Positions 8,714 through 63,019 of a stretch of 64,000 bases of DNA are shown here, piece after piece. The notes beneath the pieces were generated by a model, which saw only the letters and a program-made list of their open reading frames with translations, was not told the origin of the DNA and did not search any database. The DNA comes from Actinomycetota bacterium (GTDB lineage Bacteria > Actinomycetota > Acidimicrobiia > IMCC26256 > PALSA-555). The stretch is from NCBI GenBank assembly GCA_016870355.1, contig VGBR01000001.1, positions 250,989-314,988 of the forward strand. The letters are read 5' to 3'. The translations under genes were made by a program, and so were the position numbers. Within the stretch, counting starts at the first letter, position 1. Every line of letters starts with the position of its first letter.

Positions 8714-8732
8714 GTTCAACGATCTTTCCAAC

Positions 8733-10119: not shown

Positions 10120-10147
10120 CCTCTTCTCGCGCAATGAAGGTCCGGCC

Positions 10148-10966: not shown

Positions 10967-11045
10967 CCCCCGAAAGGCCTGACGCGGGAGAAGCCCGACA
11001 CCGGCACCGAGTCGCGCGGGCCTGCGTGCCCGGGCGACGTCGCGG

Positions 11046-11747: not shown

Positions 11748-11752
11748 TGGGG

Positions 11753-12277
11753 TCAGTCGATCAGATGCCCGAGGATCTCGTCCACCGCACTGTCGGCGAG
11801 GGCACGCATCTCGTCGTCGGTCCGATCCTGGATCGGGTGCGCGACGAACACGCGCGTGGGGTCAGCACCAAGGGCCTTGGCTTGGGCGTCCGCGCCCGTG
11901 ACGAATTCATCCGACGCGACGAACACCATCGGCACACCCATCGCTTCGAGGTTCACGGTGTCGTGCACACTGCACGACGTACAGGATCCTCAGTCGGCGA
12001 GCGCCTCGATCACCACATCGCACTTCGTGGAGATCTCGTGCCGGAGGTCGATCGGCGCCGGCTTGGTGAAGGTTGGCTTCTTGAACCGTTCGACTCTCAT
12101 GCCGCGCTGCTCGAGGTGCTCCTGCACGCGGTCGAGGAACACATCACCGCGCGCCTTGCTGATGTCGAGCAACCCGACGATCTTGCCTTCGAGTGATCCC
12201 GGTCTCTTGGCGAGCTCCCGCGTCGCTGCGGTGCGCTCCGCGGTCGGGTCGAGGAGGATCCGTCCCGTCTCCGTCAT
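11753..12277 (-). CDS. UGSC-family selenoprotein (174 aa; in-frame UGA at 11990-11992 read as selenocysteine)
   Basis: Track ORFs 11990..12277 and 11753..11968 are in the same phase, separated only by a TGA and 7 sense codons (...VVIEALAD-U-GSCTSCS-VHDTVNLEAMGVP...). A hairpin follows 11 nt downstream of the TGA. ATGA overlap with the upstream gene. Confidence 0.75.
11960..11978 (-). promoter_or_regulatory. candidate bacterial SECIS stem-loop
   Basis: The mRNA reads UGA-GGAUCCUGUAC-GUCGUGCA-GUG-UGCACGAC. This is an 8-bp perfect stem (or 6 bp with a 7-nt loop) with G/U in the apex. The apex lies about 20 nt from the UGA. Confidence 0.5.
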
Positions 12278-13707: not shown

Positions 13708-14831
13708 TTCTGGAGTGCCGCGACGATGTGATCGATCGCGCGCGTGAGGATCTCGAGGTCGCTGGTCTCGATCGCAGGGAACATCGCGATGCGCAGCTGG
13801 TTGCGACCGAGCTTGCGGTACGACTCGACATCGACGATGCCATTCGCGCGCAGCGCAGCCGCGAGGTCGTCGGCCTCGACGCCCTCGAAGTCGATCGTCG
13901 CCGTCACCGGGCTCCGCTCGGACGGCTTCTGCACGAAGGGCGTCGCAAACGCGCTGGCGTCGGCCCAGCCGTAGACGACGTTCGCAGATGCCGCGGTGCG
14001 CTTGGCCATGCCCGCGAGGCCGCCATTGGCGAGCATCCACTGGATCGTGTCCTCGAGCAGGAACAGGGTCGCCAGTGCCGGCGTGTTGTAGGTCTGATCT
14101 AGGCGTGAGTTCTCGAGCGCGATCAGGAGGCTGAGCGACGGTGGTTGCCAACGGTCCGTCGCGGCAATGCGTTCGATGCGCGCGATCGCCGCGGGTGAGC
14201 ACAACGCAAGCCAGAGGCCGCCCTCGCTCGCGAAGGCCTTCTGGGGCGCAAAGTAGTAGGTGTCGACCTGTGTGAGGTCAACCGCGATGCCGCCCGCCGC
14301 AGAGGTTGCATCAACGATCAGCAGGCGATCGGCTGACCGCCCGTCGGGTGCCTCGACGGGCATCGTGACGCCCGTCGACGTCTCGTTGTGCGCCATCGCG
14401 AACGTGTCGGCGTCCGATCCCTTCCACGCAGGGTGCGTGCCCGGTGGTGATTCCACGATGATCGGATCCTCGAGGTGCGGCGCGCCGCGGGTGACGGCGG
14501 CGAACTTGGCCGTGAACTCACCGAAGGAGAGGTGCTCGCTCTGGCGCTCGATGAGGCCGAACGCGGCGGCGTCCCAGAACGCGGTCGTGCCACCGTTGCC
14601 GAGGAGCACCTCGTATCCGTCGGGAAGCGAGTACAGATCGGCGAGCCCCTGCTTGATGCGACGGACCACCACGCGCACGCCCTCGCGACGATGGCTCGTG
14701 CCGAGGTAGGTGGGAGCCGCGGCAGCAAGTCGCTGCACTGCGTCGGTGCGCACCTTCGACGGGCCGGACCCGAAGCGCCCGTCGGACGGCCGCAGGTCGT
14801 CGGGGAGCTGGATCGCGGCGGGGTCGGGCAT
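13704..14831 (-). CDS. serC: phosphoserine aminotransferase
   Basis: 375-aa ORF of the actinobacterial SerC type (RFGSGPSKVR...LGTSHRREGV...YFAPQKAFASEGGLW). Confidence 0.9.
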   Translation of the reverse strand: MPDPAAIQLPDDLRPSDGRFGSGPSKVRTDAVQRLAAAAPTYLGTSHRREGVRVVVRRIKQGLADLYSLPDGYEVLLGNGGTTAFWDAAAFGLIERQSEHLSFGEFTAKFAAVTRGAPHLEDPIIVESPPGTHPAWKGSDADTFAMAHNETSTGVTMPVEAPDGRSADRLLIVDATSAAGGIAVDLTQVDTYYFAPQKAFASEGGLWLALCSPAAIARIERIAATDRWQPPSLSLLIALENSRLDQTYNTPALATLFLLEDTIQWMLANGGLAGMAKRTAASANVVYGWADASAFATPFVQKPSERSPVTATIDFEGVEADDLAAALRANGIVDVESYRKLGRNQLRIAMFPAIETSDLEILTRAIDHIVAALQK

Positions 14832-14856
14832 CGCTGTCGAGGCTACCGGGGCTACC

Positions 14857-15189
14857 TCACGAGGCCTCGACCGATTGCTTGAACCGGTCGGCCGGGCGGC
14901 CCGTCTCGTCCTCGTACCAGCGCGGGCGCATGGTGCGCGCCCAGCGCGCGGTCACCGTGCCTCGGCGCATGCCGTGCATAGCGTCGGGATCGCGGATTGC
15001 GAGGAACACGTGCGCGCCGACCGAGATCCAGATCAGGAGTGCGAACCAGTCGTGGACGAACGTTGCGCCGACGCGCCAGTCGAGCGGCACGATCGAGAAC
15101 CACTTGAGCATCACGCCGCTGCCGAGCATGACGACGATCGCGGCGCCGAGGAGCACTGCGTTGAGCTTCTGTCCTGGATTGAACTTGCC
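14857..15189 (-). pseudogene. cytochrome b (Ni_hydr_CYTB / b561-like) C-terminal fragment
   Basis: Only the last ~111 aa of track ORF 14857..15462 look protein-like (GKFNPGQKLNAVLLGAAIVVMLGSGVM...ATFVHDWFALLIWISVGAHVFLAIRDPDAMHGMRRG). That is two of the four expected helices. The upstream in-frame sequence is Arg/Pro-rich junk. Confidence 0.55.
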
Positions 15190-15512
15190 GCGCGCGCGGC
15201 GATCTCCATCGCCGCGCGCATCTTGCTGCCCTTCGGTAAGCGCACCCGCTTCACGTGGTGCGAGAGATCGAAGTCGGGATCCGCCGACCACGCCGGTGGA
15301 CCGACGCGCACCGCCGGTTCGACGACGCGCTGGCGCATGCGCGGGATGAGGCGGGTGCTGCGCTTGAGTCGTTCGAGCACGCGCTTCCACGACGGCGCTT
15401 TGTCGAGCACCAGGAGCACGACGATCGGCGACCGCAGGTGCGGATCGCGCTCGATGTTCCACATGAGCGTGTCCGCGTCGCCCATCGCGTGGTCGAAGGT
15501 GTCGTCCGCCAT
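15111..15512 (-). pseudogene. wax ester synthase/diacylglycerol acyltransferase (WS/DGAT) N-terminal fragment
   Basis: The first ~110 aa match the WS/DGAT N-terminal pattern (DTLMWNIERDP...IPRMRQRVV...GPPAWSADPDFDLSHHVKRVRLPKGS). The catalytic HHxxxDG region and the remaining ~350 aa are missing. The reading frame decays into the cytochrome b fragment near 15185. Confidence 0.55.
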
Positions 15513-15517
15513 GGCCG

Positions 15518-16216
15518 TCAGTTGCTCAGGTACCGGGAGCTCGTCGGCGAGAGATCCGCGTCGAGCTCGTAGACGAGTGGAACGCCGGTGGGGATGTTGA
15601 GCTCCAGCACCTCCTCCTCGGAGAGTCGGTCGAGATGCATCACGAGCGCGCGCAGCGAGTTCCCGTGCGCGACCACGAACACGGTCCGACCTTCACGGAG
15701 GTCACCAGCGATGTGGTCGTGCCAGTACGGGAGCATCCGCGCGACGACATCCTCGAGACTTTCGCAGTGAGGGAGCGCGTCATCGGGCACCTCGGCGTAC
15801 AGAGGCTCCTTGCGCTGGGCGACCCACGCGTCGTCGGTGATCGGGGGCGGGCGGGTGGCGTATGAGCGCCGCCACTGCTTGACCTGCTCGTCGCCGTACT
15901 TCGCCGCCGTCTCGGCCTTGTCGAGCCCCTGAAGCGCGCCGTAGTGGCGCTCGTTCAGGCGCCACGACCGCGTCACCGGCACGTCGCCGTTGCCGATCCG
16001 CATCTCCTTGAGCGCGAGCTCAACAGTCCGGATGGCGCGCTTCTGGAGCGAGGTGTGCACGAGGTCCGGCACGAGGCCCGCGTCACGGAGCCGTTGCCCG
16101 GCCGCGCTCGCCTCGGCCTCACCCTGGGGGCTCAGGTCGACGTCGACCCATCCAGTGAAGAGGTTCGCGAGGTTCCACTCGCTCTGCCCGTGACGCAGGA
16201 GCGCCAGCGTCGCCAT
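15518..16216 (-). CDS. gpmA: 2,3-bisphosphoglycerate-dependent phosphoglycerate mutase
   Basis: [29 protein letters not shown]...[12 protein letters not shown]. Canonical RHG and histidine-phosphatase motifs. Confidence 0.92.
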
Positions 16217-16247
16217 GGGGTGAGCCTCGCGGCCGCTGCCGCGGCGA

Positions 16248-17405
16248 TCAAGCCGGCGCGTCGGGCGTCGGGGCGATCATCGGACCGCGGGGCATGGGCG
16301 CGGTCGTGGTGGTGGTCGGTGGGAGGGTGGTCGACGTCGTGCTCGTCGACGTGGTGCTCGTCGTCGGCCCGGTGCGCTGCCACGACGTGAGGTCGAACGC
16401 CTCGTTCAGCGCCGCGAGCACTGCGTTGGCGATGATGTCGGCACCGGGCCGCTCGAAGTGGATGCCGTCGCCGGTACGCACCTTCACGAGCGATCCGCCC
16501 GGCCAGACCAAGAAGTCGGCGTAGCCGCCGTCGGGTCCAGCGAGCAGCGCGGCGGTGTCAACGTAGAACACGCGTCCCTCCCGCTTCGCGGCCTCCTGCT
16601 TCACGATGTCGTTGATCAGCTTGTAGCGCGTCTCGTAGCGAGTCACGTTCCGCATCTGCGGGATGCCGATCCAGAGGAGCGTGATGTCGCCGGTTCCGGT
16701 CATGGAGTCCATGAGACCGCCGACGCGTCGCCGGTACTCCTCGATCCACGCCGGACTCCCCAGCGATCCGACGCCACCAACACCCGTCAACGCCTGGTCA
16801 TCGTTCGACCCGATCGTCAGGACCATCACGTCGGGCGCGAAGCTCGCCACGACCGACTGGAGGTAGCCGGGCCAGTTGAACACCTCGGGGCGCGCGAGGC
16901 CCGTCGCCACGTGCCCGTCGACCGTGCGCACGTTGCCGATGACCTGCGTCGCCACTGCCTGGTTGATGACGGACTCGCCAGGTGTGACCGAGAGCGAGTC
17001 GCCGCCGACCCAGAGTCGTGCCGGCTGCGCGGGCGTGAACGCCAACTTCTTCTCGGGACTCGGGATCGTGGTGTCGGTCTCGATCGTCGGGCTCGGCAGC
17101 GTGAGATCGACGCCGTCGTCGTCACCGCGACCGATGAGCTCTTGGAGACCGAGGCGGATCCGATCGATGTACAACGCGTGGCTCACGTCGTAGAGCGGGT
17201 CGGCGAACGTCGTCGCGACGTCGCGCTCGGTGCCGACGTCCTGGCTGAGCGCCGTCTTGCGGATGCCCGGCGCGTTGAGCAGACCTCCGACGAGGAGGCA
17301 CACGAGTCCCACGATCCACACATGGCCGACCGACATCATGCGGCGATCGGGATCGTCGTGACGATCGGCCTGACGCGTGGCGCGGATGCGGGTGTCGTCC
17401 GGCAT
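16248..17405 (-). CDS. SGNH/GDSL hydrolase-type (DUF459-like) protein with an N-terminal TM and a Thr/Ser/Pro-rich C-terminal tail
   Basis: 385-aa ORF with LWVGGDSL (block I GDS), TIGSNDDQ and DGIHF blocks. Tail [30 protein letters not shown] overlap with the upstream MBOAT gene. Confidence 0.75.
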
Positions 17406-18835
17406 CAGAACTGGAAGTAGATGAACGGGGGAACACCGCTCCCGGCCAACGTGTCAGTGACGAGCAGCGCGAGCGCGAGCACAAGTCCCTGCGCGACCGG
17501 CGCCAGCCTCGAGAACCGCGCCATCGCGCGCTTCATCCGGACCTCAGGGATGTACTGCTCAGCGATGCCGACCGCGATCGCGAGCAACACGCCGAACGTC
17601 ACGAGCGGCGCGTGGTCGAACCAGTGCGACGGGTCGAAGAGACGACCGATGACGTCGCCGGCCCTCTCGAACGACTCGGCGCGGAAGAAGATCCACGCGA
17701 ACGCGACGATGTGGAACGTCACCAGTCGACGCACGAACCGGCGCCGCGGTGTGTCAAGGAGCTCGGGGAGCAGCTTCGCGATGCGACGGTTGTGCCGATG
17801 GTGATCGATGCACAGGAACAGCCCGTGGATGGCTCCCCACACGATGAACGTCCAGGCGGCGCCGTGCCACAACCCTCCGATGAGCATCGTCAGCATCAGG
17901 TTGCGATACATGCGGACGTTTCCACGGCGGTTCCCGCCCAGTGGCACGTACAAGTAGTCGCGCAGCCATCGCGACAGCGTCATGTGCCACCTACGCCAGA
18001 AGTCCTGGACCGACGTCGCGGTGTACGGGCTGTCGAAGTTCTGCGGGAAGCGGAAGCCGAGCAGCAGCGCGAGCCCGATCGCCATGTCGGTGTAGCCACT
18101 GAAGTCGGCGTAGATCTGGACCGAGAAGGCGTACACCGCGACGAGGACGGTCAGGCCGGAATGGCGGCCTGGTGATGCGAACACCGGGTCGACCATCTTG
18201 GCGAGCACGTCGGCGATCACGAGCTTCTTGAAGAGGCCCATGAAGATGAGGAAGAACGCCCGGCTCGCGTCGATCTGTTGCGGGTCGTGGGCCTCCTTCA
18301 GCTGGGGCATGAACTCCGCGGGGCGCACGATTGGTCCGGCAACGACGTGCGGGAAGAACGAGAGGAACACACCGAAGTCCCAGACCCGACCGGGCTGGAA
18401 CGTGCCCCGATAGACGTCCATCAGGTAGCTGATGGCTTGGAAGGTGAAGAACGAGATGCCCAGGGGCAGCGCGACCGTCGTGATGTCGGGCGAGATGTTG
18501 ATTCCGATGCGGTCGAGCAGGTTGGTCGCCTCGCTGACGAAGAAGTCGTAGTACTTGAAGTAGCCGAGCACGAGCAGGTTCCCGGCGAGACCCGCGACGA
18601 GCCAGCGGTGCTTCGTGCGTTGCTCGGTCGCGGCGTGGATCTTGCGCGCGACGAGCTGGTTCCCGACCGTCGACGCCGCGATCAGCACGCAGAACCACGG
18701 CTCGAGCCATCCGTAGAAGACGTACGACGCGCCCAGCATGAAGATCTTCCACCGACGTCGTCGCGGCATGAGCAACCACGACAACGGAAGGACGATCATG
18801 AAGAAGAGCGCGAACGTGATCGTCGGGAACAGCAT
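17405..18835 (-). CDS. MBOAT family O-acyltransferase (AlgI/DltB-like)
   Basis: Track ORF 17405..19012 trimmed to ATG at 18835 (MLFPTITFALFFMIVLPLSW...). Multi-TM, with the conserved FWRRWHMTLSRWLRDYLYVPLGGNR histidine motif. Confidence 0.88.
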   Translation of the reverse strand: MLFPTITFALFFMIVLPLSWLLMPRRRRWKIFMLGASYVFYGWLEPWFCVLIAASTVGNQLVARKIHAATEQRTKHRWLVAGLAGNLLVLGYFKYYDFFVSEATNLLDRIGINISPDITTVALPLGISFFTFQAISYLMDVYRGTFQPGRVWDFGVFLSFFPHVVAGPIVRPAEFMPQLKEAHDPQQIDASRAFFLIFMGLFKKLVIADVLAKMVDPVFASPGRHSGLTVLVAVYAFSVQIYADFSGYTDMAIGLALLLGFRFPQNFDSPYTATSVQDFWRRWHMTLSRWLRDYLYVPLGGNRRGNVRMYRNLMLTMLIGGLWHGAAWTFIVWGAIHGLFLCIDHHRHNRRIAKLLPELLDTPRRRFVRRLVTFHIVAFAWIFFRAESFERAGDVIGRLFDPSHWFDHAPLVTFGVLLAIAVGIAEQYIPEVRMKRAMARFSRLAPVAQGLVLALALLVTDTLAGSGVPPFIYFQF

Positions 18836-52243: not shown

Positions 52244-53566
52244 TCATTGCCGGTCGGCACCGATCACCTGCCAGCGCGGGCCCGAGTAGCGCGCAACGAG
52301 CGCGACGGCACGCGCGGCGAACCAGCCGGCGAGTGCACCCCAGAGCGCCACGACCCCGCCGTCGACCGCGCTGACGAGGACGGCCAGCGGCACGAAGACC
52401 CCGAAGGTCGCGACGATCATCGCGAGCGCGAGGTAGCGCTGATCCCCGGCGCCGATGAGCACGCCGTCGAGCACGAAGACCACGGCATTGAGCGGTTGGA
52501 GCACCGCCACGACGAGCAGGAGCTGGATCGCGAGGTCACGGATGTCGGTGCTGTCACTGAAGCCGCGAACCAACCAGGTGGCCGTGGTGGCCACGAGGAT
52601 GGCGAGCGCGATGCCGATCAGAATCCCCAGCTCCATGAGGCGGCGCGCCACCTCGCGGGCGCGCACGGCATCCGCCGCGCCGAGGAACCGACCAATCATC
52701 GCTTGGCCCGCGATCGCGAGGGCGTCGACCGACAGCGCGAGGAACAGGAAGATCTGGAACGCGATCTGGTGGGCGGCGACATCGTCGTCACCGATGCGCG
52801 CCGCGAGATTGGTCGTGACGATGAACGTGACCAACAAGGAGGCGGTCCGGACCACGAGCGGCCCGCCAACCACCAGCGCGGCGCGCATGCCTGCGAGGTC
52901 GGGTCGCAGCGAGAGGTCGTGCGCACGGGCCGAGCGTCGAACGATGAACGCGTAGGCGCACGCCGCAGCGAGCTGCGCAGTCACCGTTCCCCATGCCGAC
53001 CCTTCGATGCCCCAGTCGAAGCCGAACACGAACAGGATCTCCAACAAGAGGTTGACCACGTTCGACGACACTGCGATCACGAGCGTGGTGCGCGTGTCTT
53101 GAAGGCCGCGCAGGTAGCCGGCGGCAGCGAGCGACAACAGCAGCGCCGGTGCGCCGATCATGCTGATGCGCAGATACGAGATCGCGAACGGGCGAACCCG
53201 CGACGAAGCACCCATGGCGTCCACTATCTGGGGGGCGAGCGTCACGCCGACGACGAGCAGGACCAGTCCCAGCGCGAGTGCGAGCCAGAGCCCGTCGATG
53301 CCGTGCTGAGCGGCCCGGCGACGGTCGCCGGCGCCGACCTGGCGGGCCACCTTCGCGGTGGTGGCGTAGGCGAGGAAGTTGAACACGCCGAACGCCGCGG
53401 TCAGCACGGTGCCCGCCACGGCGAGCCCGGCCAGCGGCCTGGTGCCGAGCTGGCCGACGATCGCCGTGTCGGCGAGGAGGTAGAGGGGCTCGGCGGCCAG
53501 CGCCCCCAACGCCGGCACGGCCAGGCGCACGATCTCCCGGTCGTGGGGGCTCCGCCGGAACGCCAT
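52244..53566 (-). CDS. MATE family efflux transporter
   Basis: Track ORF trimmed to ATG at 53566 (MAFRRSPHDREIVRLAVPALGALAAEPLYLLADTAIVGQLG). 12 TM, typical MATE/DinF N-terminus. Confidence 0.88.
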   Translation of the reverse strand: MAFRRSPHDREIVRLAVPALGALAAEPLYLLADTAIVGQLGTRPLAGLAVAGTVLTAAFGVFNFLAYATTAKVARQVGAGDRRRAAQHGIDGLWLALALGLVLLVVGVTLAPQIVDAMGASSRVRPFAISYLRISMIGAPALLLSLAAAGYLRGLQDTRTTLVIAVSSNVVNLLLEILFVFGFDWGIEGSAWGTVTAQLAAACAYAFIVRRSARAHDLSLRPDLAGMRAALVVGGPLVVRTASLLVTFIVTTNLAARIGDDDVAAHQIAFQIFLFLALSVDALAIAGQAMIGRFLGAADAVRAREVARRLMELGILIGIALAILVATTATWLVRGFSDSTDIRDLAIQLLLVVAVLQPLNAVVFVLDGVLIGAGDQRYLALAMIVATFGVFVPLAVLVSAVDGGVVALWGALAGWFAARAVALVARYSGPRWQVIGADRQ

Positions 53567-53602
53567 CGCACGAGTGTCACACCCTGGTGCGATGGTGGAC
53601 CC

Positions 53603-53962
53603 ATGGGCGGAGAACCCATCACCCCCCAACGGGGGGCTCCGGTGCTGCGTTTCGCCGACACGGCGAGGCGCCTAGGGGCGGCGGCGCGCGCCGCCGGACT
53701 CGTCGTGCCCGCCTTCCGGTGCCCGCCACGAGTGCCGGGCGTGCGCCGTACCGTGCGTCGATTCCCTGGCGGATCGGTCATCTCGGTCGTGCTCGACGGC
53801 CGAGAGTTCGGCGAGGTCGCTACCGACATGGTCGAAGGCGTGCTGGTGGTCAATCAGCTCGAAGGCGAAGCGGCCCATCGCTTCCGTGACGCGCTCAGAT
53901 CTGCTGCGGGCCTACCCTCGAACGAAGCCCGGATGGCGGAACGGCAGACGCGAGCGGCTTAA
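53603..53962 (+). CDS. hypothetical protein; its 3' end overlaps tRNA-Leu by 36 nt
   Basis: The last 119 codons of shadow ORF 51878..53962, from ATG at 53603 (MGGEPITPQRGAPVLRFADTARRLGAAARAAGLVVPAFRCPP...). Protein-like composition, divergent from the MATE gene. Confidence 0.45.
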   Translation: MGGEPITPQRGAPVLRFADTARRLGAAARAAGLVVPAFRCPPRVPGVRRTVRRFPGGSVISVVLDGREFGEVATDMVEGVLVVNQLEGEAAHRFRDALRSAAGLPSNEARMAERQTRAA

Positions 53963-54011
53963 ACCCGCTTATCCCCTCGGGGGTGTGCAGGTTCAAATCC
54001 TGCTCCGGGCA
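53927..54011 (+). tRNA. tRNA-Leu (anticodon UAA), class II with long variable arm
   Basis: Manual cloverleaf. Acceptor gcccgga/tccgggc plus discriminator A. Anticodon arm agcgg-cTTAAac-ccgct. Variable stem cccc-tcg-gggg. T arm gcagg-ttcaaat-cctgc. Confidence 0.9.
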
Positions 54012-54045
54012 CGATCCCAAATACCTCGAGCGACATGATGCTTGC

Positions 54046-54183
54046 GTGCCGGGGTGCTCTCTCTCTTGAGGAGGAGCGAGTCGGCGAGCGGACTGTTTGG
54101 TGGGTCAGCTCGCCTTGAGGTGGCGGCGGAGTGCTTTGCGAATCACTTCCGAAACGGGAACGCCTTCATCTTCGGCGCGATGA
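54046..54183. repeat. direct repeat copy A (3' end of an RHH-type gene plus downstream DNA)
   Basis: 54103..54183 matches 60642..60722 at 80 of 81 nt. 54046..54102 aligns imperfectly to 60588..60641. Read on the minus strand it encodes only ...HRAEDEGVPVSEVIRKALRRHLKAS-stop. Confidence 0.85.
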
Positions 54184-54321
54184 GGCGCCGATTGCGGCCC
54201 ACGAGTGCCCCCCACCTGCAACTCGGAGAGCCACAGCAGCGGATTGCGCTGTGCTGGCACTCCAGAATGACCCTCACCGGCGAAGCGGATCGCGCCGGCT
54301 CGTGTCGTTGCTACGCGCCAG

Positions 54322-55377
54322 CTACTGCGCCGATCGGTCGCCGGTGCGTAGATCGCCGATCGACGCACCTTCGAGCTGCGGCCCGCTCGTGTGCAGATGA
54401 CAGAACACCGTCGTGCCATCCGGCGTGAGGAACGGCGGCGGATCCTCTGCTCGGCAGACGTCCAACACGTACGGACAGCGGGTGTGGAAGCGACACCCCG
54501 CGGGCGGGTTCGCCGGCGACGGGATGTCACCCTCGAGAATGATGCGACGGCGCTCGCGCTGGCGCACCGGGTTCGGCACCGGGATCGCCGACAGGAGCGC
54601 CTCGGTGTAGGGGTGCTTGGGCTGGTCGTAGACGGCTGCGGCCGGGCCGTCCTCCACGATCCGCCCGAGGTACATCACCGCGATCCTCTCGCTCACGTGA
54701 CGGACGATCGAGAGGTCGTGCGCGATGAACAGCATCGCGACGTGCAGGCGGTCCTGGAGCTGTGCGAACAGGTTGATGACCTGTGCCTGCGTCGAGACGT
54801 CGAGAGAGCTCACTGGTTCGTCGAGGATCAGCAGCTTCGGGTCGACGGTCAGCGCCCGCGCGACTCCGGCGCGCTGGAGCTGGCCGCCAGAGAGCTCGTA
54901 CGGGTAGCGCGTCAGATACTCCGGTGACATGCCGACGATCTCGAGCAGCTCGGCAGCGCGAGCCGTCTGCTGGGCAGCGTCGAGCTCGAGGTGTGCACGC
55001 ATCGGTTCGCGCAGGCTGTCGAGCATGGTCGCCGTGGCGTCGAAGGACGAGTACGGGTCCTGGAACACGATCTGGAAGTTCCTTCGCAGCTCGCGCAGCT
55101 CCCGACCGTGGAGGGTGGTGATGTCGTTGCCTTCGAAGCAGACTTGTCCGGAGGTTGGTTCGATCAGCCGCAGCACGAGTCGTCCCAGCGTCGACTTGCC
55201 CGAGCCGCTCTCGCCGACGAGGCCGACTGTCGTGGCGCGTGGCACGACGAGATCGACGCCGTCGACGGCGCGCACGTGTCCGTGCACGCGACGACGCAGC
55301 CCTCGTTCGATGGGGAAGAGCTTGCGCACTTGCCGGGTCTCGAGCAGCGCGGGCCCCGCGGAGGTGATCGCCGTCAC
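54322..55377 (-). CDS. ABC transporter ATP-binding protein (oligopeptide/dipeptide, OppF/DppF-like)
   Basis: Track ORF trimmed to GTG at 55377 (GTGA overlap). Walker A GESGSGKST, signature LSGGQLQR, Walker B LLILDEP, and the C-terminal oligopeptide-ABC Cys-rich tail. Confidence 0.9.
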   Translation of the reverse strand: MTAITSAGPALLETRQVRKLFPIERGLRRRVHGHVRAVDGVDLVVPRATTVGLVGESGSGKSTLGRLVLRLIEPTSGQVCFEGNDITTLHGRELRELRRNFQIVFQDPYSSFDATATMLDSLREPMRAHLELDAAQQTARAAELLEIVGMSPEYLTRYPYELSGGQLQRAGVARALTVDPKLLILDEPVSSLDVSTQAQVINLFAQLQDRLHVAMLFIAHDLSIVRHVSERIAVMYLGRIVEDGPAAAVYDQPKHPYTEALLSAIPVPNPVRQRERRRIILEGDIPSPANPPAGCRFHTRCPYVLDVCRAEDPPPFLTPDGTTVFCHLHTSGPQLEGASIGDLRTGDRSAQ

Positions 55378-57422
55378 TGTGAGCCTCGGAGGTCGAGTTC
55401 GCCCGAGCGCAGGCAGCGGACGTCGTGCGGGGTAGGGCCAGCCGCCCCGTTGGGTCCGGCGGTGAGCGAGACCCGCTCGCTGCGGCATGCGTCGATGACG
55501 TACGCGCACCGCGGGTGGAACCGGCAGCCTCCGGGCCACGCCCGTGGATGGGGCACCTGTCCCGGGATCACGTACAGCGCGTCTCCGGCGCGTCCGGTCT
55601 GAGGCATCGCGGCGAGCAAGCCCTCGGTGTACGGCTGCTGCGGGCGTGTGAACACCTCGCCCACGGTGCCCTGCTCGACGATCTGCCCCGAGTACATCAC
55701 CGCGACGCGGTCACAGATGTCGGCGACGACACCGAGGTCGTGCGTCACGAAGATGACGGAGAGATCGAGCTCGCGCTGCAGCGAGCGGAGCAGGTCGAGC
55801 ATCTGCGCCTGGATGGTGACGTCGAGCGCAGTCGTCGGCTCGTCGGCGATGAGCAGCTTCGGTCGGCACATGAGCGCGATCGCCAGCATCACGCGTTGGC
55901 GCATACCGCCCGAGAGCTGGTGGGGATACTCGTGGAGTCGCTGCTCGGGCGCCGGGATCTGGACGAGATCGAGCATCTCGCGGGCGCGTGCGCGCGCGGT
56001 CGCGCGGTCGACGTGCTCGTGGAGACGCAGTGCTTCCCGCAGCTGGTCGCCGATCGTGTAGGCAGGGTTGAGGCTCGTCATCGGGTCCTGGAACACCATC
56101 GACAGCTCCGCGCCCCGGATTGCGCGCATCTCGTCGAAGGACAAGGCGAAGAGATCCCGTCCCTCGAAGTACACCGCGCCTTCGGCGATCCGGGCCGGGG
56201 GCGACCCGAGCAGGCGCATGATGGCGAGGGAAGTGACGGTCTTGCCCGAGCCGCTCTCACCGACCAGACCGAGCACCTCGCCGGACGCGACGGAGAAGCT
56301 GACGTCATCGACCACCCGGACGCGTCCTTGCTCGGTGTCGAACTCCAGGCTGAGGTGCTCGACCGCGAGCAGCGGTGCGGGATCCGGTGCCGCGGGCACC
56401 TCGATGCGCGTCACGGCGGTGAGGCCACGGCGCGTCTTGCGCTGGCGCTGCTGCCAGGCCTGAAGCACGTTCCATGCCTGCCATGGCTTGCGGTGATGGT
56501 CGCGGGTAGGAACCCACTGCGACGCGCTCAGCGCGTCGCGCAGCGCGTCGCCCAGCGTGTTGTAGGCGAGGACCATCAACGCGATCACGGCCCCGGGAAA
56601 CCACAGCTGCCACGGATGTGTGTACAGCGAATGGTCGTAGGCGCGCCGGAGCATGTTGCCCCAGCTCGCGTTCGGTGGCTGCTGTGAGAGGCCCAGGAAG
56701 CTGAGCCCGGCCTCGGCGAGGATCGCGGCACCGAAGGCGAGCGACATGCCCACGATCAGGGGTGACCGCACGTTGGGGAGGATCCGATGGGAGAGGATGC
56801 GTCTCGTACGTGTGCCGATCGAGCGTGACGCCTCGACGAAGGTCTCCTCCTTGACGGCGAGCGTCGACGCCCGCACCAGCCGCGCGAAACCGGGAACCAT
56901 GACGATCGTGATGGCCAGCGCGACGTTGCCCACGCCCTTTCCGAGCAGCCCCGCCACCGCGATCGCGAGCACGAGGGGCGGGAAGGCGAGCATGGCGTCG
57001 ACGATCCGCATGAGCAGGTTGTCGAGGCGACCACCGATGTACCCGGAGACGAGCCCGATCGGCAGGGCGATCAGCCCGGCGAGCAGCACGGTCTGGAGGC
57101 TGATCCGCACCGAGATGCGGGCGCCCACGATGAGACGGCTGAGGATGTCGCGCCCCAGGTCGTCGGTGCCGAAGGGGTGGCTCCACGACGGCACATCGTT
57201 GGAGTTGAGGATGTCCTGAGCGTTGGGGTCGTGGGGGGCCACCGCCGTGCCGAAGATCGCCGCGATCGCGACGAGCATGAGGAACGCGATGGCCAGCACC
57301 GTGCCCCGCTTGCGGAGCAGCCGGCGAACGAGGCGGAGCCGCGGACTCGTCGAGCGCGCTGTCGCCACTGTCTCGACGGCAGCGACCGGTGCCAACCCGG
57401 TCGTGTCGGGCCGGAGGCTCAC
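55374..57422 (-). CDS. fused ABC transporter permease / ATP-binding protein (OppC/DppC-like permease plus OppD/DppD-like ATPase)
   Basis: Continuous 682-aa frame from GTG at 57422. N-terminal BPD permease (LAFPPLVLAIAVAGLLG...EASRSIGT), then GESGSGKTV, LSGGMRQR and LLIADEP. Confidence 0.85.
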   Translation of the reverse strand: MSLRPDTTGLAPVAAVETVATARSTSPRLRLVRRLLRKRGTVLAIAFLMLVAIAAIFGTAVAPHDPNAQDILNSNDVPSWSHPFGTDDLGRDILSRLIVGARISVRISLQTVLLAGLIALPIGLVSGYIGGRLDNLLMRIVDAMLAFPPLVLAIAVAGLLGKGVGNVALAITIVMVPGFARLVRASTLAVKEETFVEASRSIGTRTRRILSHRILPNVRSPLIVGMSLAFGAAILAEAGLSFLGLSQQPPNASWGNMLRRAYDHSLYTHPWQLWFPGAVIALMVLAYNTLGDALRDALSASQWVPTRDHHRKPWQAWNVLQAWQQRQRKTRRGLTAVTRIEVPAAPDPAPLLAVEHLSLEFDTEQGRVRVVDDVSFSVASGEVLGLVGESGSGKTVTSLAIMRLLGSPPARIAEGAVYFEGRDLFALSFDEMRAIRGAELSMVFQDPMTSLNPAYTIGDQLREALRLHEHVDRATARARAREMLDLVQIPAPEQRLHEYPHQLSGGMRQRVMLAIALMCRPKLLIADEPTTALDVTIQAQMLDLLRSLQRELDLSVIFVTHDLGVVADICDRVAVMYSGQIVEQGTVGEVFTRPQQPYTEGLLAAMPQTGRAGDALYVIPGQVPHPRAWPGGCRFHPRCAYVIDACRSERVSLTAGPNGAAGPTPHDVRCLRSGELDLRGSQ

Positions 57423-58417
57423 GAGACCCGCACCTTGGGGTTGAGGAACCCGTAGGTGATGTCGGCGAGCGTGCTGAGGATCAACGCGGCGAGCACGAAG
57501 ATGAGCACCACACCCTGGATCACCGGTACGTCGAAGCTGACCACGGCGCGCAGGAAGTACGGGCCCATCCCCGGGATCGTGAAGATCTCCTCGACGATCA
57601 CCGTGCTGCCGATCAGGTAGCCGGTCTGGAGTGCCAGGATCGTGACGACCGGTATCGCCGCGTTCTTCAGCGCGTGCTTGACGACGATCAATCGCGTGCT
57701 GCCGCCCTTGGCCCACGCGCTACGCACGTAGTTGGTGTCGAGCACGTCGATGAGCGCTGCCCGCAGCTGGCGCGAGAGCGAGGCCGCGGACCAGGTCCCG
57801 AGCGCGATGGCCGGCAGCGCGATGTGCTCGAGCCAGCGGAGCGGGTTCTCGAAGAACGGCACGTACCCCGACGGGGGGAGCAACCGCAGGTCGACCGCGA
57901 ACAGCACCACGAGGATGATCGCCAGCCAGTACCCCGGGATCGAGATCCCCAGCGTGGTGCCGAAGCGGGAAAGCTTGTCGATGGCGCCCGCGGGCCGCAT
58001 CGCCGACAGGACCCCGAGCGGCACGCCGACCAGGAGGCCGACGAACAGCGCGGCACCGGCCAGGCCAAGGGTGATCGGCAGCCGCTCGGCGATGTCGCTG
58101 GTCACCGCGGTCCGCGCGAAGAGGGAGTCGCCGAGGTCACCCTGGACCGCGCCGCCGAGCCAGCGCCCGTACTGCTGGAAGATCGACTCGTCGAGGTGCA
58201 GCTCCTCGCGCACCTCGGCGATCCGCTCGGGAGTTGCGTTCTCGCCGCCGGCGAGCGTGACGGACGCATCGCCCGGGACCAGCGCGATGAGGATGAACAC
58301 GAAGAACGAGACGAGAACGAGCAGGGGGACCAGCGCCAGCAAGCGGCGTGCAATCAGCGTGCCCAAGGCGCGCAGCCCCCTTCTCGGCGTGGCCTCGTCG
58401 GAACCGCCGGAGTCCAC
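57419..58417 (-). CDS. ABC transporter permease (OppB/DppB-like)
   Basis: 332-aa ORF, 6 TM, with the EAA-type loop (NYVRSAWAKGGSTRLIVVKHALKNA). The exact start is uncertain. Confidence 0.85.
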   Translation of the reverse strand: MDSGGSDEATPRRGLRALGTLIARRLLALVPLLVLVSFFVFILIALVPGDASVTLAGGENATPERIAEVREELHLDESIFQQYGRWLGGAVQGDLGDSLFARTAVTSDIAERLPITLGLAGAALFVGLLVGVPLGVLSAMRPAGAIDKLSRFGTTLGISIPGYWLAIILVVLFAVDLRLLPPSGYVPFFENPLRWLEHIALPAIALGTWSAASLSRQLRAALIDVLDTNYVRSAWAKGGSTRLIVVKHALKNAAIPVVTILALQTGYLIGSTVIVEEIFTIPGMGPYFLRAVVSFDVPVIQGVVLIFVLAALILSTLADITYGFLNPKVRVS

Positions 58418-58528
58418 TCGCTTCTGACGTGAACGTCAATCTCGGAGCGTCGGGGTGGCCGCGCGCCGGGACCCTGGTCGATCGCCCGACTATGTTCGCG
58501 GCTGCCAGCGGTCATCCGGGGGGAAGCC

Positions 58529-60127
58529 ATGAAGCGCAATGACACGCGTCGGTCCGTACGTCGCCTCGTCGGTGTGTGCACCATCGTGGTGCTGGCCGGC
58601 ACGAGCCTCGTCGCCTCGAGTGCCAACGCGGTCAGTCCGTCCGGGAAGAAGTCGGCGATCGACCCGAACGGGACCCTGAGGTTCGGGGTCGAGCTCAACA
58701 ATCGCTCGCCCCAGCTGGTGGCGTTCGACCCGGCAACCTCGACGACGACGAACGACGTCTGGAACCTCGCGTTCATCTACGACACGCTCCTCTACCCGCC
58801 GCTCAAGACGGGCAAGTACGAGCCCGGCTTGGCGCGCTCGTTCGAAGTCGTCGATGACCAGACCATCGAGGTGGAGCTGCGCCCGAACCTGACGTTCCAC
58901 GACGGGGAGACGCTCGATGCCGACGCCGCCAGTGCGAGCATCATGCGCAACTTCGAGACGGTGAACTCGTCATGGAACCCCGCGTTCGCGAATCTCGACT
59001 CGATCGAGGTGCTTTCCCCGACCACATTCCGCATCAACCTCACCGAACCTGGTGCGTACGCGTTCCTCCCACTCCTGGCTGCGCGCGAGACGATGGTCGT
59101 GTCGCCTACGGCCGCGGCGGCTGGAACTCTCGAGGAGCTCCCGATTGGCGCCGGACCGTTCGAGTTCGGGGAGTACGACACCGAGCAGCTGCTCTCGTTG
59201 ACGAAGTTCAAGGACTACTGGAACGCCAAGAAGGTGAGGATCGGCCAGCTCGATCTGGTCAGCTCGGTGGCCGGCGCACCGCGGGTCGCGGCACTGCTCG
59301 CGCCCACCATCGACGTCGGCGGCATCAGTGTCTCCGATGTCGGTGGTGTCGACGGCCGTGATGACCTGAAGGTCGCGACCAAGCCGTCGGACGGGTTCCT
59401 CTACACGCAGCTGTGCAAGAGCGAGCCGCCCTTCGACAACCTGAAGGTGAGGCAGGCGTTCTCTCACGCGATCAACCGCGACGAGCTCAACCAGGCCGTG
59501 TACGACGGGCTGGGAGCGCCGGCGTACATGGCGTGGTCGGAGGGAACGCCTTTCTACGAGCCGTCCATCGCCAAACAGCAGAAGTACAACCCGAAGCTCG
59601 CGCGCAAGCTGCTCGCCGAGGCTGGCTTCGAGGACGGCGTCTCCTTCAGCACGATGATCGTCGCGGGCTTCCCGGCGACGGAGACACTCACCACCGTCCT
59701 GGAGCAGCAGCTCGCCGAGGTCGGTATCGAGATCACCATCGAGCAAAGTGCCAACTACGCGCAGGACGTGTGGGTCGATCGCAAGACCGACACCGGTACC
59801 GTGCCGTGGATCCGCTCCGGTGTGGAGAACACCATCATGTTCGACCCTGGGTTCCAGGCCAACCTCTGCGGCTACGACGACCCGGAGCTCAACGATCTGC
59901 GCACCGCGGTGCTCGATGCTGTCCCAGGTTCGCCCGCGCAGCACGATGCGTGGACCGCATGGATGAAGCACGTCGCCGACAACATGCTCGTCATCTACCA
60001 CCTCTATCCGGCGTCGGTCATCGGCTTCCACTCCGACCGGGTCGATGCGAGCAAGTTCGACTCGCTCTACTCGGGTCCGAGCGCGCAGTTCTTGGACTGG
60101 ACGGCGATGACGGTCAAGAAGGGCTAA
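58529..60127 (+). CDS. ABC transporter substrate-binding protein (family 5, peptide/nickel)
   Basis: 532-aa ORF with a signal peptide (RRLVGVCTIVVLAGTSLVASSANA) and SBP_bac_5-like body. Divergent from the permease/ATPase genes. Confidence 0.88.
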   Translation: MKRNDTRRSVRRLVGVCTIVVLAGTSLVASSANAVSPSGKKSAIDPNGTLRFGVELNNRSPQLVAFDPATSTTTNDVWNLAFIYDTLLYPPLKTGKYEPGLARSFEVVDDQTIEVELRPNLTFHDGETLDADAASASIMRNFETVNSSWNPAFANLDSIEVLSPTTFRINLTEPGAYAFLPLLAARETMVVSPTAAAAGTLEELPIGAGPFEFGEYDTEQLLSLTKFKDYWNAKKVRIGQLDLVSSVAGAPRVAALLAPTIDVGGISVSDVGGVDGRDDLKVATKPSDGFLYTQLCKSEPPFDNLKVRQAFSHAINRDELNQAVYDGLGAPAYMAWSEGTPFYEPSIAKQQKYNPKLARKLLAEAGFEDGVSFSTMIVAGFPATETLTTVLEQQLAEVGIEITIEQSANYAQDVWVDRKTDTGTVPWIRSGVENTIMFDPGFQANLCGYDDPELNDLRTAVLDAVPGSPAQHDAWTAWMKHVADNMLVIYHLYPASVIGFHSDRVDASKFDSLYSGPSAQFLDWTAMTVKKG

Positions 60128-60331
60128 CGCTTCGGTCGGGTCCCGGACGGATGGGGGGCGCACACCCCTCAACCCCAAGAGCCGGTCCCATGCCGAGCCG
60201 AGAAGTCCGGCCACGCTCCGGCTCGAGGAACGATGTGCAACGGTGCCCTGCGCTGAGGCCTTCGAGCCGGCTTTTGCGTTTGGACGGAACGGTGCCGGGC
60301 CTCGTTGCCCGCCAGGAGATCGTGGTTCCTA

Positions 60332-60369
60332 TGAGTAGGACGCTGCGGCGTGAGTAGGACGCTGCGGGG
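60332..60369. repeat. 19-nt tandem duplication (2 copies)
   Basis: tgagtaggacgctgcggcg / tgagtaggacgctgcgggg, with one mismatch. It lies inside a 516-nt apparently non-coding stretch. Confidence 0.7.
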
Positions 60370-60587
60370 GATGGCGACGAGACCCTCAGCCAGTACTTGC
60401 GGTGGCCCAGCCCAGTGCTTCTCCGGCGCGAAGCATCCCCGCGTTCAGTGATCGCGCAATCACGGAGTACCTCGAGCGAAAAACCCGCGTCTGAAGCTCG
60501 CATTGCCGGGACGGTCGCCCAGGCTTCTCGCAGTTCGGTCGGCCCGTGGTGACAGTCCAACCTCGGGGAGCAATTTGTGGCGCTGCG

Positions 60588-60722
60588 GTGCCGAGGTGCT
60601 CTCTCCCGGGGAAGGCGAGTCGGCGAGCAGAGTGTGTCGTCGGTCAGCTCGCCTTGAGGTAGCGGCGGAGTGCTTTGCGAATCACTTCCGAAACGGGAAC
60701 GCCTTCATCTTCGGCGCGATGA
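60588..60722. repeat. direct repeat copy B (partner of 54046..54183)
   Basis: See copy A. Here the repeat is continuous with the remainder of the RHH reading frame. A shared 12-mer tacctcgagcga also occurs at 54022 and 60468. Confidence 0.85.
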
Positions 60723-60808
60723 ACCAGGAACTGCTTGAGTTCGGGATCGAGGCGAACGGACTCGTCTGCAAGTTCCCATCGAGCCCGACCTTCATCGCAG
60801 TGCCTGAG
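60644..60808 (-). CDS. ribbon-helix-helix (CopG-family) antitoxin-like protein; no canonical start codon found, possibly disrupted
   Basis: The frame read by hand gives ...ESVRLDPELKQFLVHRAEDEGVPVSEVIRKALRRYLKAS-stop, a full RHH strand-helix-helix. An in-frame TGA sits at 60809-60811 and there is no ATG/GTG/TTG between it and the beta-strand. Local GC is lower than the surroundings. Confidence 0.45.
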   Translation of the reverse strand, partial: LRHCDEGRARWELADESVRLDPELKQFLVHRAEDEGVPVSEVIRKALRRYLKAS

Positions 60809-60926
60809 TCAACGGTCGACTTCCCGAGCCTCAACGTTCTCTTGGAGGAGGTCCTCGTGGTGAATGCGACGATGCAGCAACAAGGCACCGCGTCGACACT
60901 CGATCATGCAGACCAGTACTGCAAGC

Positions 60927-61454
60927 TCAAGAGGGCTCCGAAGTAGCGGGTCGGTCGATGCCGTAGACGCGGGTGTCTCGGCCGCGGAAGTCGATGGTTC
61001 GCTCGAACTTCTCACCTAGGCGGTGAGCGACGGCAATCGAGCGCGTGTTCTCGGGGTTGATGAGGCTGATGACGCGGGTCGCGTCGAGCTCGTTCCACGC
61101 GTGCTCGAGCGCGACGCGCGCGGCCTCGGTGGCATAGCCACGGCCCCACACCGTTCGGTCGAGTGCCCATCCCACTTCGAGGCCGGGCCAGCCGACCGGG
61201 CGGTGAAGGCCGACGCGCCCGACCATGGTCTCAGAGTCGCGCACTTCGACGGCCCACGTACCGAAGCCGCGCAGCGCCCAGTGCCCGGTGAACATGGCCA
61301 TGCTGCGCCACGCGTCCTCTCGACTGAGCGTGTTGCCATCGCCGATATAACGCATCACCTCGGGGTCCGAGCACATGCGCGCGTACGCGTCGAGGTCCTC
61401 GTCGCGCCACGCGCGCAGCACGAGGCGATCAGTGTGGATCGTCGGGGCAGCCAC
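60927..61454 (-). CDS. GNAT family N-acetyltransferase (Acetyltransf_3 / RimJ-RimL-like)
   Basis: Tail of shadow ORF 60927..62219 from GTG at 61454: TIHTDRLVLRAWRDEDLDAYARMCSDPEVMRYIG...GWALDRTVWGRGYATEAARVALEHAW. Confidence 0.8.
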   Translation of the reverse strand: MAAPTIHTDRLVLRAWRDEDLDAYARMCSDPEVMRYIGDGNTLSREDAWRSMAMFTGHWALRGFGTWAVEVRDSETMVGRVGLHRPVGWPGLEVGWALDRTVWGRGYATEAARVALEHAWNELDATRVISLINPENTRSIAVAHRLGEKFERTIDFRGRDTRVYGIDRPATSEPS

Positions 61455-61468
61455 GGCGCTGCCGTTCG

Positions 61469-63019
61469 TCAGTCCGGGTCGGGGACGGGTTGCGGCGGGG
61501 GCGGCCCGACGTAGCTCGCGCTCGGGCGGATCAGTCGGTTGTCGGCAGCTTGTTCGAGGATGTGCGCGGTCCAACCGATCACCCGGCTCGACGCGAACGT
61601 CGGCGTGAACATCTCCGCGGGCACTCCACAGGCGTCCATGACGATGCCGGCGTAGAACTCCACGTTCGTGTAGAGCTTGCGACCGGGCTTGAGCTCGGCG
61701 AGCAGATCGATCGCCTTCTGCTCGACCTGCTTGGCGAACTCGACGTTCGGTCCACCGAGCCGTTCGGCCACGCTGCGCAACATCACCGAGCGGGGATCGT
61801 CGGTCTTGTAGACGCGGTGACCGAACCCCATCAGGCGGTCGCCGCGCTCGATCGCGTCGCGGATCCACGGTTCGGCCTTGTCGATCGTGCCGATGTCTTC
61901 GATCATCGTGAGTGCCCGGCTCGGTGCGCCGCCGTGCAACGGGCCCGACAGCGCGCCGATCCCACCTACGACGGCGGCGGCGAGGTCGGCGCCGGTCGAC
62001 GTGATCACGCGCGCCGTGAAGGTCGACGCATTGAACCCGTGGTCGATCGTGGAGATGAGGTAGTGCTCGACCGCCCGTGCGTGCTCGGGCTTCTGGGTCT
62101 CGCCCAGCATCATCTTCAGGTAGTTGGCGGCGTACGGGAGATCGGGATCGGGCTCGACAACTGGCAGCTGGTGCTTCAGCCGGTAGAGGGCGCACAGCAG
62201 GCTCGGCACCACGGCACACACGCGCAACGCCTGCTGCCGGAGCTCGGTCGCGCTCAGGTCGAGCGACGGACCGAAGCCCAGGCTGGCACCGAGCAACGAC
62301 ACCGCGGTTCGCAGCTGTTCGAGGGGCGGTGCGTCGGGGGCGGCGATGATGATCTGCGGCAGCGCCTCGAGCAATGCCGGTGGGATCACGCGCAGCGGCG
62401 CGATCTCGCGCATGAACGCCTCACGCTCAGCGCGGTTGGGGAGCTCGCCTTCGTAGAGCAAGTGCCAGACGTCTTCGATCGATCGCGTCTCGGCGAGCTC
62501 GACCGCGTCGTACTGGCGGTAGTGGTAGAAGCCTTCGAGACCGCGGACGTCACCGATGGCCGTCTCGGCGACCACCACACCTTCGAGGCCACGCGGCACG
62601 TCGAGCGCGAGGTGATCCGCCGGCTGGATCTGGGCGATGCGCATGAGATCGCGCATCGACACGATGCCCACGAGCTTGCCGCCGTCGACGACGGGGATGT
62701 GGCGATAGCCGTGCTCGGCGAGGCTGGCGAACGCCGACGTCGCCTCGGCATCCGGCGCGACCGAATCGGGGTCAGGCGTCATCCAGTCGCGGACGAGGTC
62801 GCTGCCGGCGGCGCGGGCGGCGGCGAGGCGCACGAGGTCCCGTTCGGTGAGGATCCCTACGGGGCGGTCGCCGTCCACGACGACGACGGACCCCACGCGC
62901 TGCTCGCGCATGCGCTCGGCGGCGGCCCCGACGGTCTCGTCAGCAGTGGCGGTGACGACCGGGTGGCTCATGATGTCGGCCACGGTTCGCGTCGTGCCCG
63001 CGCCGGTGACCGCCATCAA
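61469..63019 (-). CDS. CBS-domain pair fused to citrate synthase (type I / CitA-like)
   Basis: The N-terminal ~135 aa contain two CBS motifs (VADIMSHPVVTA...GILTERDLVR; VRDWMTPDPDSV...GIVSMRDLMR). The rest is citrate synthase (GPLHGGAPS, GFGHRVYKTDDPR, catalytic His/Asp context). Confidence 0.88.
   Translation of the reverse strand: MMAVTGAGTTRTVADIMSHPVVTATADETVGAAAERMREQRVGSVVVVDGDRPVGILTERDLVRLAAARAAGSDLVRDWMTPDPDSVAPDAEATSAFASLAEHGYRHIPVVDGGKLVGIVSMRDLMRIAQIQPADHLALDVPRGLEGVVVAETAIGDVRGLEGFYHYRQYDAVELAETRSIEDVWHLLYEGELPNRAEREAFMREIAPLRVIPPALLEALPQIIIAAPDAPPLEQLRTAVSLLGASLGFGPSLDLSATELRQQALRVCAVVPSLLCALYRLKHQLPVVEPDPDLPYAANYLKMMLGETQKPEHARAVEHYLISTIDHGFNASTFTARVITSTGADLAAAVVGGIGALSGPLHGGAPSRALTMIEDIGTIDKAEPWIRDAIERGDRLMGFGHRVYKTDDPRSVMLRSVAERLGGPNVEFAKQVEQKAIDLLAELKPGRKLYTNVEFYAGIVMDACGVPAEMFTPTFASSRVIGWTAHILEQAADNRLIRPSASYVGPPPPQPVPDPD

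Follow-up and report, generated by a model that had tools for sequence, protein, structure and literature searches.

Truncated antitoxin gene copies around a peptide importer operon beside tRNA-Leu: a possible decayed composite island in an Acidimicrobiia genome

How a nutrient importer operon came to lie between two nearly identical pieces of DNA next to a tRNA gene is the question raised by a 64,000-nt stretch of an Actinomycetota genome (class Acidimicrobiia, lineage PALSA-555; assembly GCA_016870355.1, contig VGBR01000001.1, positions 250,989 to 314,988 of the forward strand). The whole stretch is referred to as the window, and coordinates are those of the window unless a locus identifier (L followed by a number) is given. 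A gene for tRNA-Leu(UAA) (53927-54012, plus strand; ARAGORN, Rfam tRNA score 55.5 bits) has its 3' end facing a pair of direct repeats, and between the two copies lie a four-gene peptide/nickel-type ATP-binding cassette (ABC) importer and 460 nt of non-coding DNA. The repeat is real, both of its copies are truncated pieces of a ribbon-helix-helix (RHH) antitoxin gene, the block that holds them is absent from the nearest relatives, and the operon recurs elsewhere. The antitoxin family travels with a toxin gene and with recombinases, in one case within an island bounded by tRNA sequence. We tentatively read the locus as a decayed composite island at tRNA-Leu, in which serial insertions were followed by decay that left only tRNA-proximal relics; this reading is given a little less than an even chance.

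Repeats made of two antitoxin gene relics

Comparison of the window with itself by blastn paired 54046-54183 with 60588-60722 as direct repeats, 90.6% identical over 138 columns (E 2e-49). A repeat search gave a gap-free stretch of 108 nt within the pair (54076-54183 and 60615-60722) with 94% identity, and in the core (54103-54183 and 60642-60722) 80 of 81 nt were identical by blastn. The copies have the same orientation and are 6.5 kb apart, and no third copy was found in the window, neither by DNA search nor by tblastn with the repeat as protein. The original prediction, that near-identical direct repeats bracket the ABC operon beside tRNA-Leu, was thereby confirmed with the 80/81 core and the 90.6% identity over 138 columns. 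Copy A begins 33 nt past the 3' end of tRNA-Leu. On the right the edge of the repeat is sharp, at 54183 and 60722, with unrelated sequence past it.

Identity was distributed unevenly along the repeat. In the coding part (54105-54183) 78 of 79 positions agreed, compared to 47 of 59 columns, with a 3-nt indel, in the part after the stop codon (54046-54104; Fisher p = 1.6e-4). The lone coding difference between copies A and B is non-synonymous (His/Tyr), and there are no synonymous differences. The core therefore has a more recent shared history than the sequence adjoining it, and its near-identity calls for gene conversion, a crossover in the core or stronger coding constraint in the past. A weaker similarity (17/28) continued through the spacer toward the tRNA gene and reached about 10 nt from it. 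The 12-mer TACCTCGAGCGA in this spacer (54022-54033, plus strand) was found again as an exact copy at 60468-60479, and a degenerate version, ACCTCGGGGAGCA, was present at 60560-60572. The sharing of the exact 12-mer is only marginally beyond chance (estimated p about 0.02), and it is a possible candidate for a junction or the remnant of an attachment (att) core. A match of 11/19 between the 12-mer region and the sequence just before the stop codon of the neighbouring GNAT gene was judged not significant.

Both copies were recognized as 5'-truncated relics of a 94-aa RHH antitoxin, and neither is a gene. Copy A (54046-54183, minus strand) consists of 58 nt of downstream sequence, a stop codon (54105-54107) and the last 24 codons of the antitoxin, residues 71-94, which by tblastn are 96% identical to the same residues of family member P0002. 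Only the second half of the RHH domain is retained. Copy B (60588-60722, minus strand) consists of downstream sequence, a stop codon (60644-60646) and the last 25 codons. On the minus strand the coding parts of both copies end in ...EDEGVPVSEVIRKALRR(H/Y)LKAS, followed by the stop. Beyond the edge of the repeat the homology of copy B to the antitoxin continues, and the resulting relic B (60644-60763, minus strand) covers residues 56-94 by tblastn (87% identity to P0002) and at most columns 40-94 by profile comparison. It holds a complete RHH_1 domain (Pfam positions 3-38 of 39, E 3.8e-7).

Copy B had been described earlier as the 3' end of a complete RHH reading frame. This was not upheld, as no ATG, GTG or TTG was found in its frame between the RHH domain and the upstream in-frame TGA at 60809-60811. 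The missing start codon, the upstream TGA and the restriction to residues 56-94 make copy B a longer second relic and not a complete gene. A by-eye alignment of 60764-60907 to the N-terminus of the family, which would have made copy B a full-length decayed gene, was rejected because the profile comparison aligned columns 40-94 only. The truncation points of the two copies differ, codon 71 in copy A and about codon 56 in copy B. A full-length 94-aa antitoxin was absent from the window, in which the antitoxin gene is present as fragments only.

The inserted block and its operon

The nearest other lineages were located via the neighbouring MATE transporter gene (78% identity). Their gene order is acyltransferase, MATE transporter, a small protein, tRNA-Leu(UAA), GNAT acetyltransferase and citrate synthase, with identities of 78% for MATE, 80% for GNAT and 87-89% for citrate synthase. 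Only 9-12 nt separate the 3' end of tRNA-Leu from the GNAT stop codon in L193, L194, L196 and L197, and neither RHH nor ABC genes were found in this interval. All of 54013-60926 (6.9 kb), both relics included, is therefore inserted DNA, and the block starts 0-12 nt past the 3' end of tRNA-Leu. The proposal that the enclosed DNA is an insertion relative to the relatives thus held, as these four loci are without the block. The empty site that had been envisaged, tRNA-Leu followed directly by the RHH gene, was not found; what the relatives have 9-12 nt from tRNA-Leu is the GNAT stop codon. No RHH gene was found in L001-L030 either. In the distant relatives L004, L010 and L013, 4-6 kb of unrelated genes lie between the same tRNA-Leu and citrate synthase, and GNAT is absent. 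The interval from tRNA-Leu to citrate synthase is therefore a recurrent site of change, or hot spot.

The enclosed importer is made up of an OppF-like ABC ATPase (54322-55377, minus strand; Pfam ABC_tran and oligo_HPY; gene call in L092), a 682-aa fusion of an OppC-type permease and an OppD-type ATPase (55374-57422, minus strand; OppC_N, BPD_transp_1, ABC_tran and oligo_HPY), an OppB-type permease (57419-58366, minus strand; BPD_transp_1_N and BPD_transp_1) and a family-5 solute-binding protein (58529-60127; SBP_bac_5, E 8e-69), which is on the plus strand, divergent from the other three genes. Homologues of the binding protein were few, with identities of 88, 83, 76, 72 and 63%, followed by a drop to 39%; the gene order differs at the 72% relative. 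The same operon was found in L198 (GCA_945889545.1, CAMDCC010000019.1, 5789-11616), where 87.8% nucleotide identity was confined to window positions 54323-60141, an interval that begins at the stop codon of one end gene and runs 14 nt beyond that of the other. By Smith-Waterman comparison the flanks of the operon in the window and in L198 were not more alike than shuffled sequences. The operon is thus portable, recurring alone in a different neighbourhood of another genome. Its neighbours in L198 are an aminotransferase, a PhyH dioxygenase, a short-chain dehydrogenase and an amidohydrolase, a setting that hints at the substrate pathway which the importer may serve. The OppC-OppD fusion is kept in L198 and in the contig holding P0242.

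Three intervals of the block are without assignment. The 138 nt between relic A and the end of the operon (54184-54321) have no similarity to the right flank of copy B or to the flank of the L198 operon. The 460 nt of non-coding DNA between the binding protein gene and copy B (60128-60587) hold the second 12-mer and its degenerate version. They contain a 148-aa open reading frame (ORF) without a Pfam match, and no Rfam match, integrase similarity or likeness to other loci was found for this interval. The 163 nt between relic B and the GNAT stop (60764-60926) have no detectable homology to the N-terminal half of the antitoxin or to the toxin gene described below. Searches of 54184-54321, 60128-60600 and 60764-60926 for further relics gave no match with Pfam or tblastn and nothing with blastn against all loci, and tblastx of the three intervals against all loci returned high-GC noise only. 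In Rfam (E up to 1), promoter and terminator scans of 53000-62000, the tRNA was the only feature detected.

A 134-kb Joint Genome Institute (JGI) contig matches the window at about 99.95% identity, and the arrangement recurred in several other samples. Contigs assembled with short k broke at 60691/60693, as predicted from an exact repeat of 61 nt. L105 (a 305-kb contig) and L108 are independent assemblies made with different k, and both ended at 54048, which the repeat does not predict. In L107 the tRNA and the spacer were shared, followed by divergence from 54053-54065 into about 52 nt of unrelated sequence; some cells of the species therefore carry other DNA to the right of tRNA-Leu. The assemblies thus hint at variation of the left junction among members of the population. 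The 52-nt tail of L107 matched no other sequence compared. It was tried as a third variant of the sequence downstream of RHH and as a GNAT end, and was rejected because it scored within shuffles against every candidate. An exact-match scan of metagenome contigs for the spacer between tRNA and repeat gave no match, the collection evidently being without the source samples.

To the right of the block lies the GNAT acetyltransferase gene (60927-61454, minus strand; Pfam Acetyltransf_3), 80% identical to its L196 orthologue, which is the resident gene abutting tRNA-Leu in the nearest relatives. The next gene encodes a citrate synthase with CBS domains (61469-63016, minus strand; Pfam), 87-89% identical in L193, L196 and L197 and present in L004, L010 and L013, and it forms the conserved right-hand anchor of the variable interval. 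Its N-terminal pair of CBS domains is kept in L196 and L197; the L193 gene was called at 391 aa without CBS domains. On the other side, between the MATE gene and tRNA-Leu, a small protein without Pfam match is encoded at 53660-53926 and is 87% identical in the relatives. It was not called in the source contig, and the gene call in the relatives overruns the tRNA. Far from the block, ARAGORN reported a tRNA-Arg(TCG) at 18667-18763 with the anticodon at position 37. With 97 nt it is unusually long, and it may hold an insertion or be a miscall.

The antitoxin family at other loci

A protein search yielded 416 RHH relatives, nearly all of them 94 aa in length; their RHH domain occupies the C-terminal 40 residues, and their mean identity is 85% over the full length. 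In 72 of 80 metagenome loci, as in all of the loci fetched via two homologues, the 94-aa RHH gene is immediately preceded by a conserved ORF of 79 aa, and where genes had been called this ORF overlapped the RHH start by 4 nt. A profile of this ORF matched chain C of PDB 9SDC (E 1.9e-13), and a few of its members matched Pfam BrnT_toxin weakly. The toxin chain of 9SDC is M. tuberculosis RelS (Rv2663), a BrnT-like RNase cleaving 16S rRNA (PMC13284704). The partner of RelS, RelI, is described as a helix-turn-helix (HTH) protein without structural homologues (PMC13284704). The family antitoxin differs from RelI in its 94-aa length and its C-terminal RHH domain, so that the module looks like a RelS-type toxin family paired with a different antitoxin, RelI being HTH. 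It is widespread and highly conserved in Acidimicrobiia-type metagenome contigs (for example L081 6497-6969, L086 6140-6615, and L113-L192, such as L136 1024-1541).

Several of these loci connect the module with mobile DNA. A Xer-like tyrosine recombinase is encoded directly upstream of the module in 7 of the 36 loci with enough upstream sequence, and additionally in L081-L084. A 5.6-kb island of L118 contains the toxin-RHH module; 48-nt repeats of the 3' end of tRNA-Arg form its borders, and a 382-aa integrase is encoded next to the tRNA. L136 repeats the geometry of copy A, its RHH gene being convergent with a tRNA-Met gene at a distance of 205 nt. No antitoxin relatives were found in viral contigs. 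Among about 90 family loci with intact homologues no duplicated 3' fragment of RHH was found; L157 and L177 hold two modules each, which are full modules and not fragments. An apparent difference between L086 and L087 after the RHH gene, taken from the gene tables, was discarded because the DNA is colinear.

Further observations were made at the family loci. L118 carries three copies, 43-48 nt in length, of the 3' end of tRNA-Arg(ACG) (2-44, 5596-5643 and 11288-11335), which mark off two islands in tandem, each about 5.5 kb long. One contains the integrase, the RelS-like/RHH module, a methyltransferase and a Xer-like recombinase, and the other a 974-aa BTAD/AAA regulator and a DUF1326 protein. 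Many loci that are not otherwise related (L113-L192 and L086; for example L142, L148, L133 and L188) share a motif of the form ACGACTGCCCC..AACGCCGGG within the 25-30 nt that follow the RHH stop codon, and past the motif they diverge completely. A terminator, an operator or the boundary of a mobile unit are possible readings of it. In L081 the recombinase-toxin-RHH module is followed (7116-16503) by small accessory genes on both strands that are reminiscent of a cassette array; they include seven GNAT acetyltransferases, two methyltransferases, a PhyH gene, a chloramphenicol-phosphotransferase-like gene, a deaminase and a nucleotidyltransferase.

Origin and meaning of the arrangement

From these observations we infer the order of events, a mechanism of serial insertion and a contribution of gene conversion. 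Each repeat would be what is left of a mobile island at its tRNA-proximal end, the island having encoded a RelS/BrnT-like toxin and the 94-aa RHH antitoxin. The short gap separating tRNA-Leu(UAA) from the convergent GNAT gene would have received inserted DNA more than once. An older insert may have decayed to relic B. A later, related insert, which carried the ABC operon or gained it afterwards, would have landed between the tRNA and relic B and decayed to relic A and the operon. The toxin gene, the recombinase and the 5' portion of the antitoxin gene would have been lost by deletion each time. Since deletions cannot enter the tRNA gene, the 3' end of the antitoxin gene, the sequence downstream of it and the spacer would survive twice in the same orientation. 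The similarity of A and B past the stop and through the spacer nearly to the tRNA would likewise be due to both being the same kind of island end. The serial insertion accounts for the differing truncation points. Later gene conversion, or stronger coding constraint in the past, would have kept the 79-nt core alike compared to 80% identity downstream.

Several observations weigh against this history. An agreement of 78/79 in the coding part beside 47/59 downstream is not expected of two independent acquisitions unless conversion or constraint is added. An intact element, with recombinase, toxin, RHH and operon together, was not found, and small-ORF tblastn queries for the toxin gene had no match anywhere in the window. 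Two recombinase queries taken from family loci likewise detected no integrase remnant in the whole window by tblastn. A copy of the tRNA-Leu 3' end at an internal or distal junction, the classical signature of insertion at a tRNA gene, was not found, and matches to tRNA-Leu elsewhere in the window did not exceed 12 nt. The sole candidate for a core is the shared 12-mer of marginal significance. The nearest relatives are distant (78% amino-acid identity), and the order of events was thus not observed. The composition of the insert also fails to set it apart. GC content was 0.65-0.71 throughout, and GC content at third codon positions (GC3) was 0.86-0.94 in the operon compared to 0.77-0.90 in neighbouring genes. 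The comparison of the enclosed DNA with its flanks, which had been proposed as a check, therefore gave no sign of foreign origin, GC and GC3 matching the host. Either the donor was compositionally alike or the insertion is old.

A different origin would be a single-crossover (Campbell-type) insertion, in which a circle bearing the operon together with a related 3' fragment of RHH recombined with an older relic on the tRNA-Leu side within the 81-nt stretch, through RecA or a trans-acting recombinase, and left a hybrid copy at each end. Direct repeats at both ends of the operon insert, with a sharp right boundary at 54183/60722, would follow from such an event. The near-perfect core is the expected place of the crossover, the operon is a portable block, and excision from the present structure could release such a circle. 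However, the predicted solo site was not found, and the nearest relatives are without any RHH gene. Copy B is not a reconstituted gene, no recombinase was found in the window by tblastn, and none of about 90 family loci has a duplication of the 3' fragment. The donor circle must also already have held the same arrangement of spacer, downstream sequence and RHH fragment, so that the explanation presupposes itself, and a crossover alone does not make copies identical. No contig carrying the solute-binding protein gene showed a circle junction, though short-read contigs break at the repeat. This origin is considered unlikely, if still worth serious attention. Local duplication, in which a single relic was doubled during the rearrangement that imported the operon, after which the non-coding part diverged and conversion kept the core, is clearly less probable. 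It fits with there being two copies only, in the same orientation and 6.5 kb apart, and with a likeness that includes the non-coding spacer. It requires about 20% non-coding divergence and a 3-nt indel while the adjoining dead coding 79 nt stayed at 78/79, and an extra deletion to give truncation at codon 71 and about codon 56; a duplication of about 160 nt of target is not known from any insertion mechanism.

It is also conceivable, but improbable to a still higher degree, that the RHH 3' end and roughly 60-100 nt beyond it (including GTGCCGNNGTGCTCTCTC and the TACCTCGAGCGA 12-mer) form a true recombination site, and that the operon is a non-autonomous cassette shuttled in and out next to tRNA-Leu by a recombinase whose gene lies elsewhere, such as the Xer-like enzyme associated with the module in other genomes. 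If this were true, the break at 54048-54065 would reflect ongoing cassette exchange. Chance similarity, or a dispersed repeat family resembling repetitive extragenic palindromes (REP) or miniature inverted-repeat transposable elements (MITE) and unrelated to the locus, has only the short length of the repeat in its favour and is effectively refuted for this window. The pair has an E value of 2e-49, just two copies occur in 64 kb, the only further occurrences of an 18-nt motif among 199 fetched loci are in the same species, and the sequence is recognizable as the 3' end of a conserved protein family. A composite transposon does not fit either, as transposase families were absent from the Pfam scans and the repeats, 135-138 nt long, encode the C-terminus of the antitoxin only.

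The original prediction had compared the locus with the integration of DNA into the 3' end of a gene. Phages and integrative elements integrate into the 3' ends of genes, classically tRNA or tmRNA genes, and carry a replacement 3' end. The geometry agrees with this, since two direct copies of a gene 3' end flank foreign DNA next to a tRNA gene, the displaced copy A comprising codons 71-94 and downstream sequence. Identity stops sharply within the gene, and the longer copy is at one end. However, the supposed target is neither functional nor resident, the longer copy is truncated and without a start codon, no integrase adjoins it, and no relative has an empty site with the target gene. Integration into a resident RHH gene with a replacement 3' end was therefore not borne out, as the gene is not reconstituted, the relatives are without RHH and about 90 family loci show no habit of 3' duplication. 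As had been stated, no mobility gene lies between the repeats (Pfam, tblastn), and no integrase was recognized by Pfam among the insert ORFs examined. The alternative that had been offered, an ancient island whose mobility genes were lost, is the closest fit to the evidence.

Compared to tRNA-associated islands, such as the tandem islands of L118 at tRNA-Arg, the insert is similar in lying 3' of a tRNA gene, in its absence from the nearest relatives at an interval that varies in distant relatives, and in its accessory cargo, a nutrient importer, together with pieces of a toxin-antitoxin module that is found in the L118 island. It differs in having no integrase, no repeats derived from a tRNA 3' end and no compositional deviation. 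Its repeats are antitoxin gene fragments and not att sites, unlike the 48-nt tRNA-Arg repeats of L118. In BrnTA systems the toxin gene comes first and the antitoxin gene second, and the family module shares this order, with its 4-nt overlap. The relatives' gene upstream of RHH also matches RelS of the RelS-RelI pair (Rv2663-Rv2664). In the window itself, however, the toxin gene was not found and the antitoxin occurs as fragments only.

The locus is thus regarded as a decayed island of the ordinary kind in an unusual state of preservation, and current ideas on how islands work are left unchanged by any of these results. For annotation it carries the caution that neither "RHH gene" is a gene, and for island finders that the signals of integrase, tRNA-derived repeat and composition are all absent here. 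The repeats are without function today. As a remaining substrate for recombination, they could still allow the operon to be lost through RecA. As a picture of an island after the loss of mobility and toxin genes, in which only the antitoxin 3' ends nearest to the tRNA remain, twice, the locus would show how a nutrient-uptake operon came to lie beside a tRNA gene in an uncultured freshwater lineage of Acidimicrobiia.

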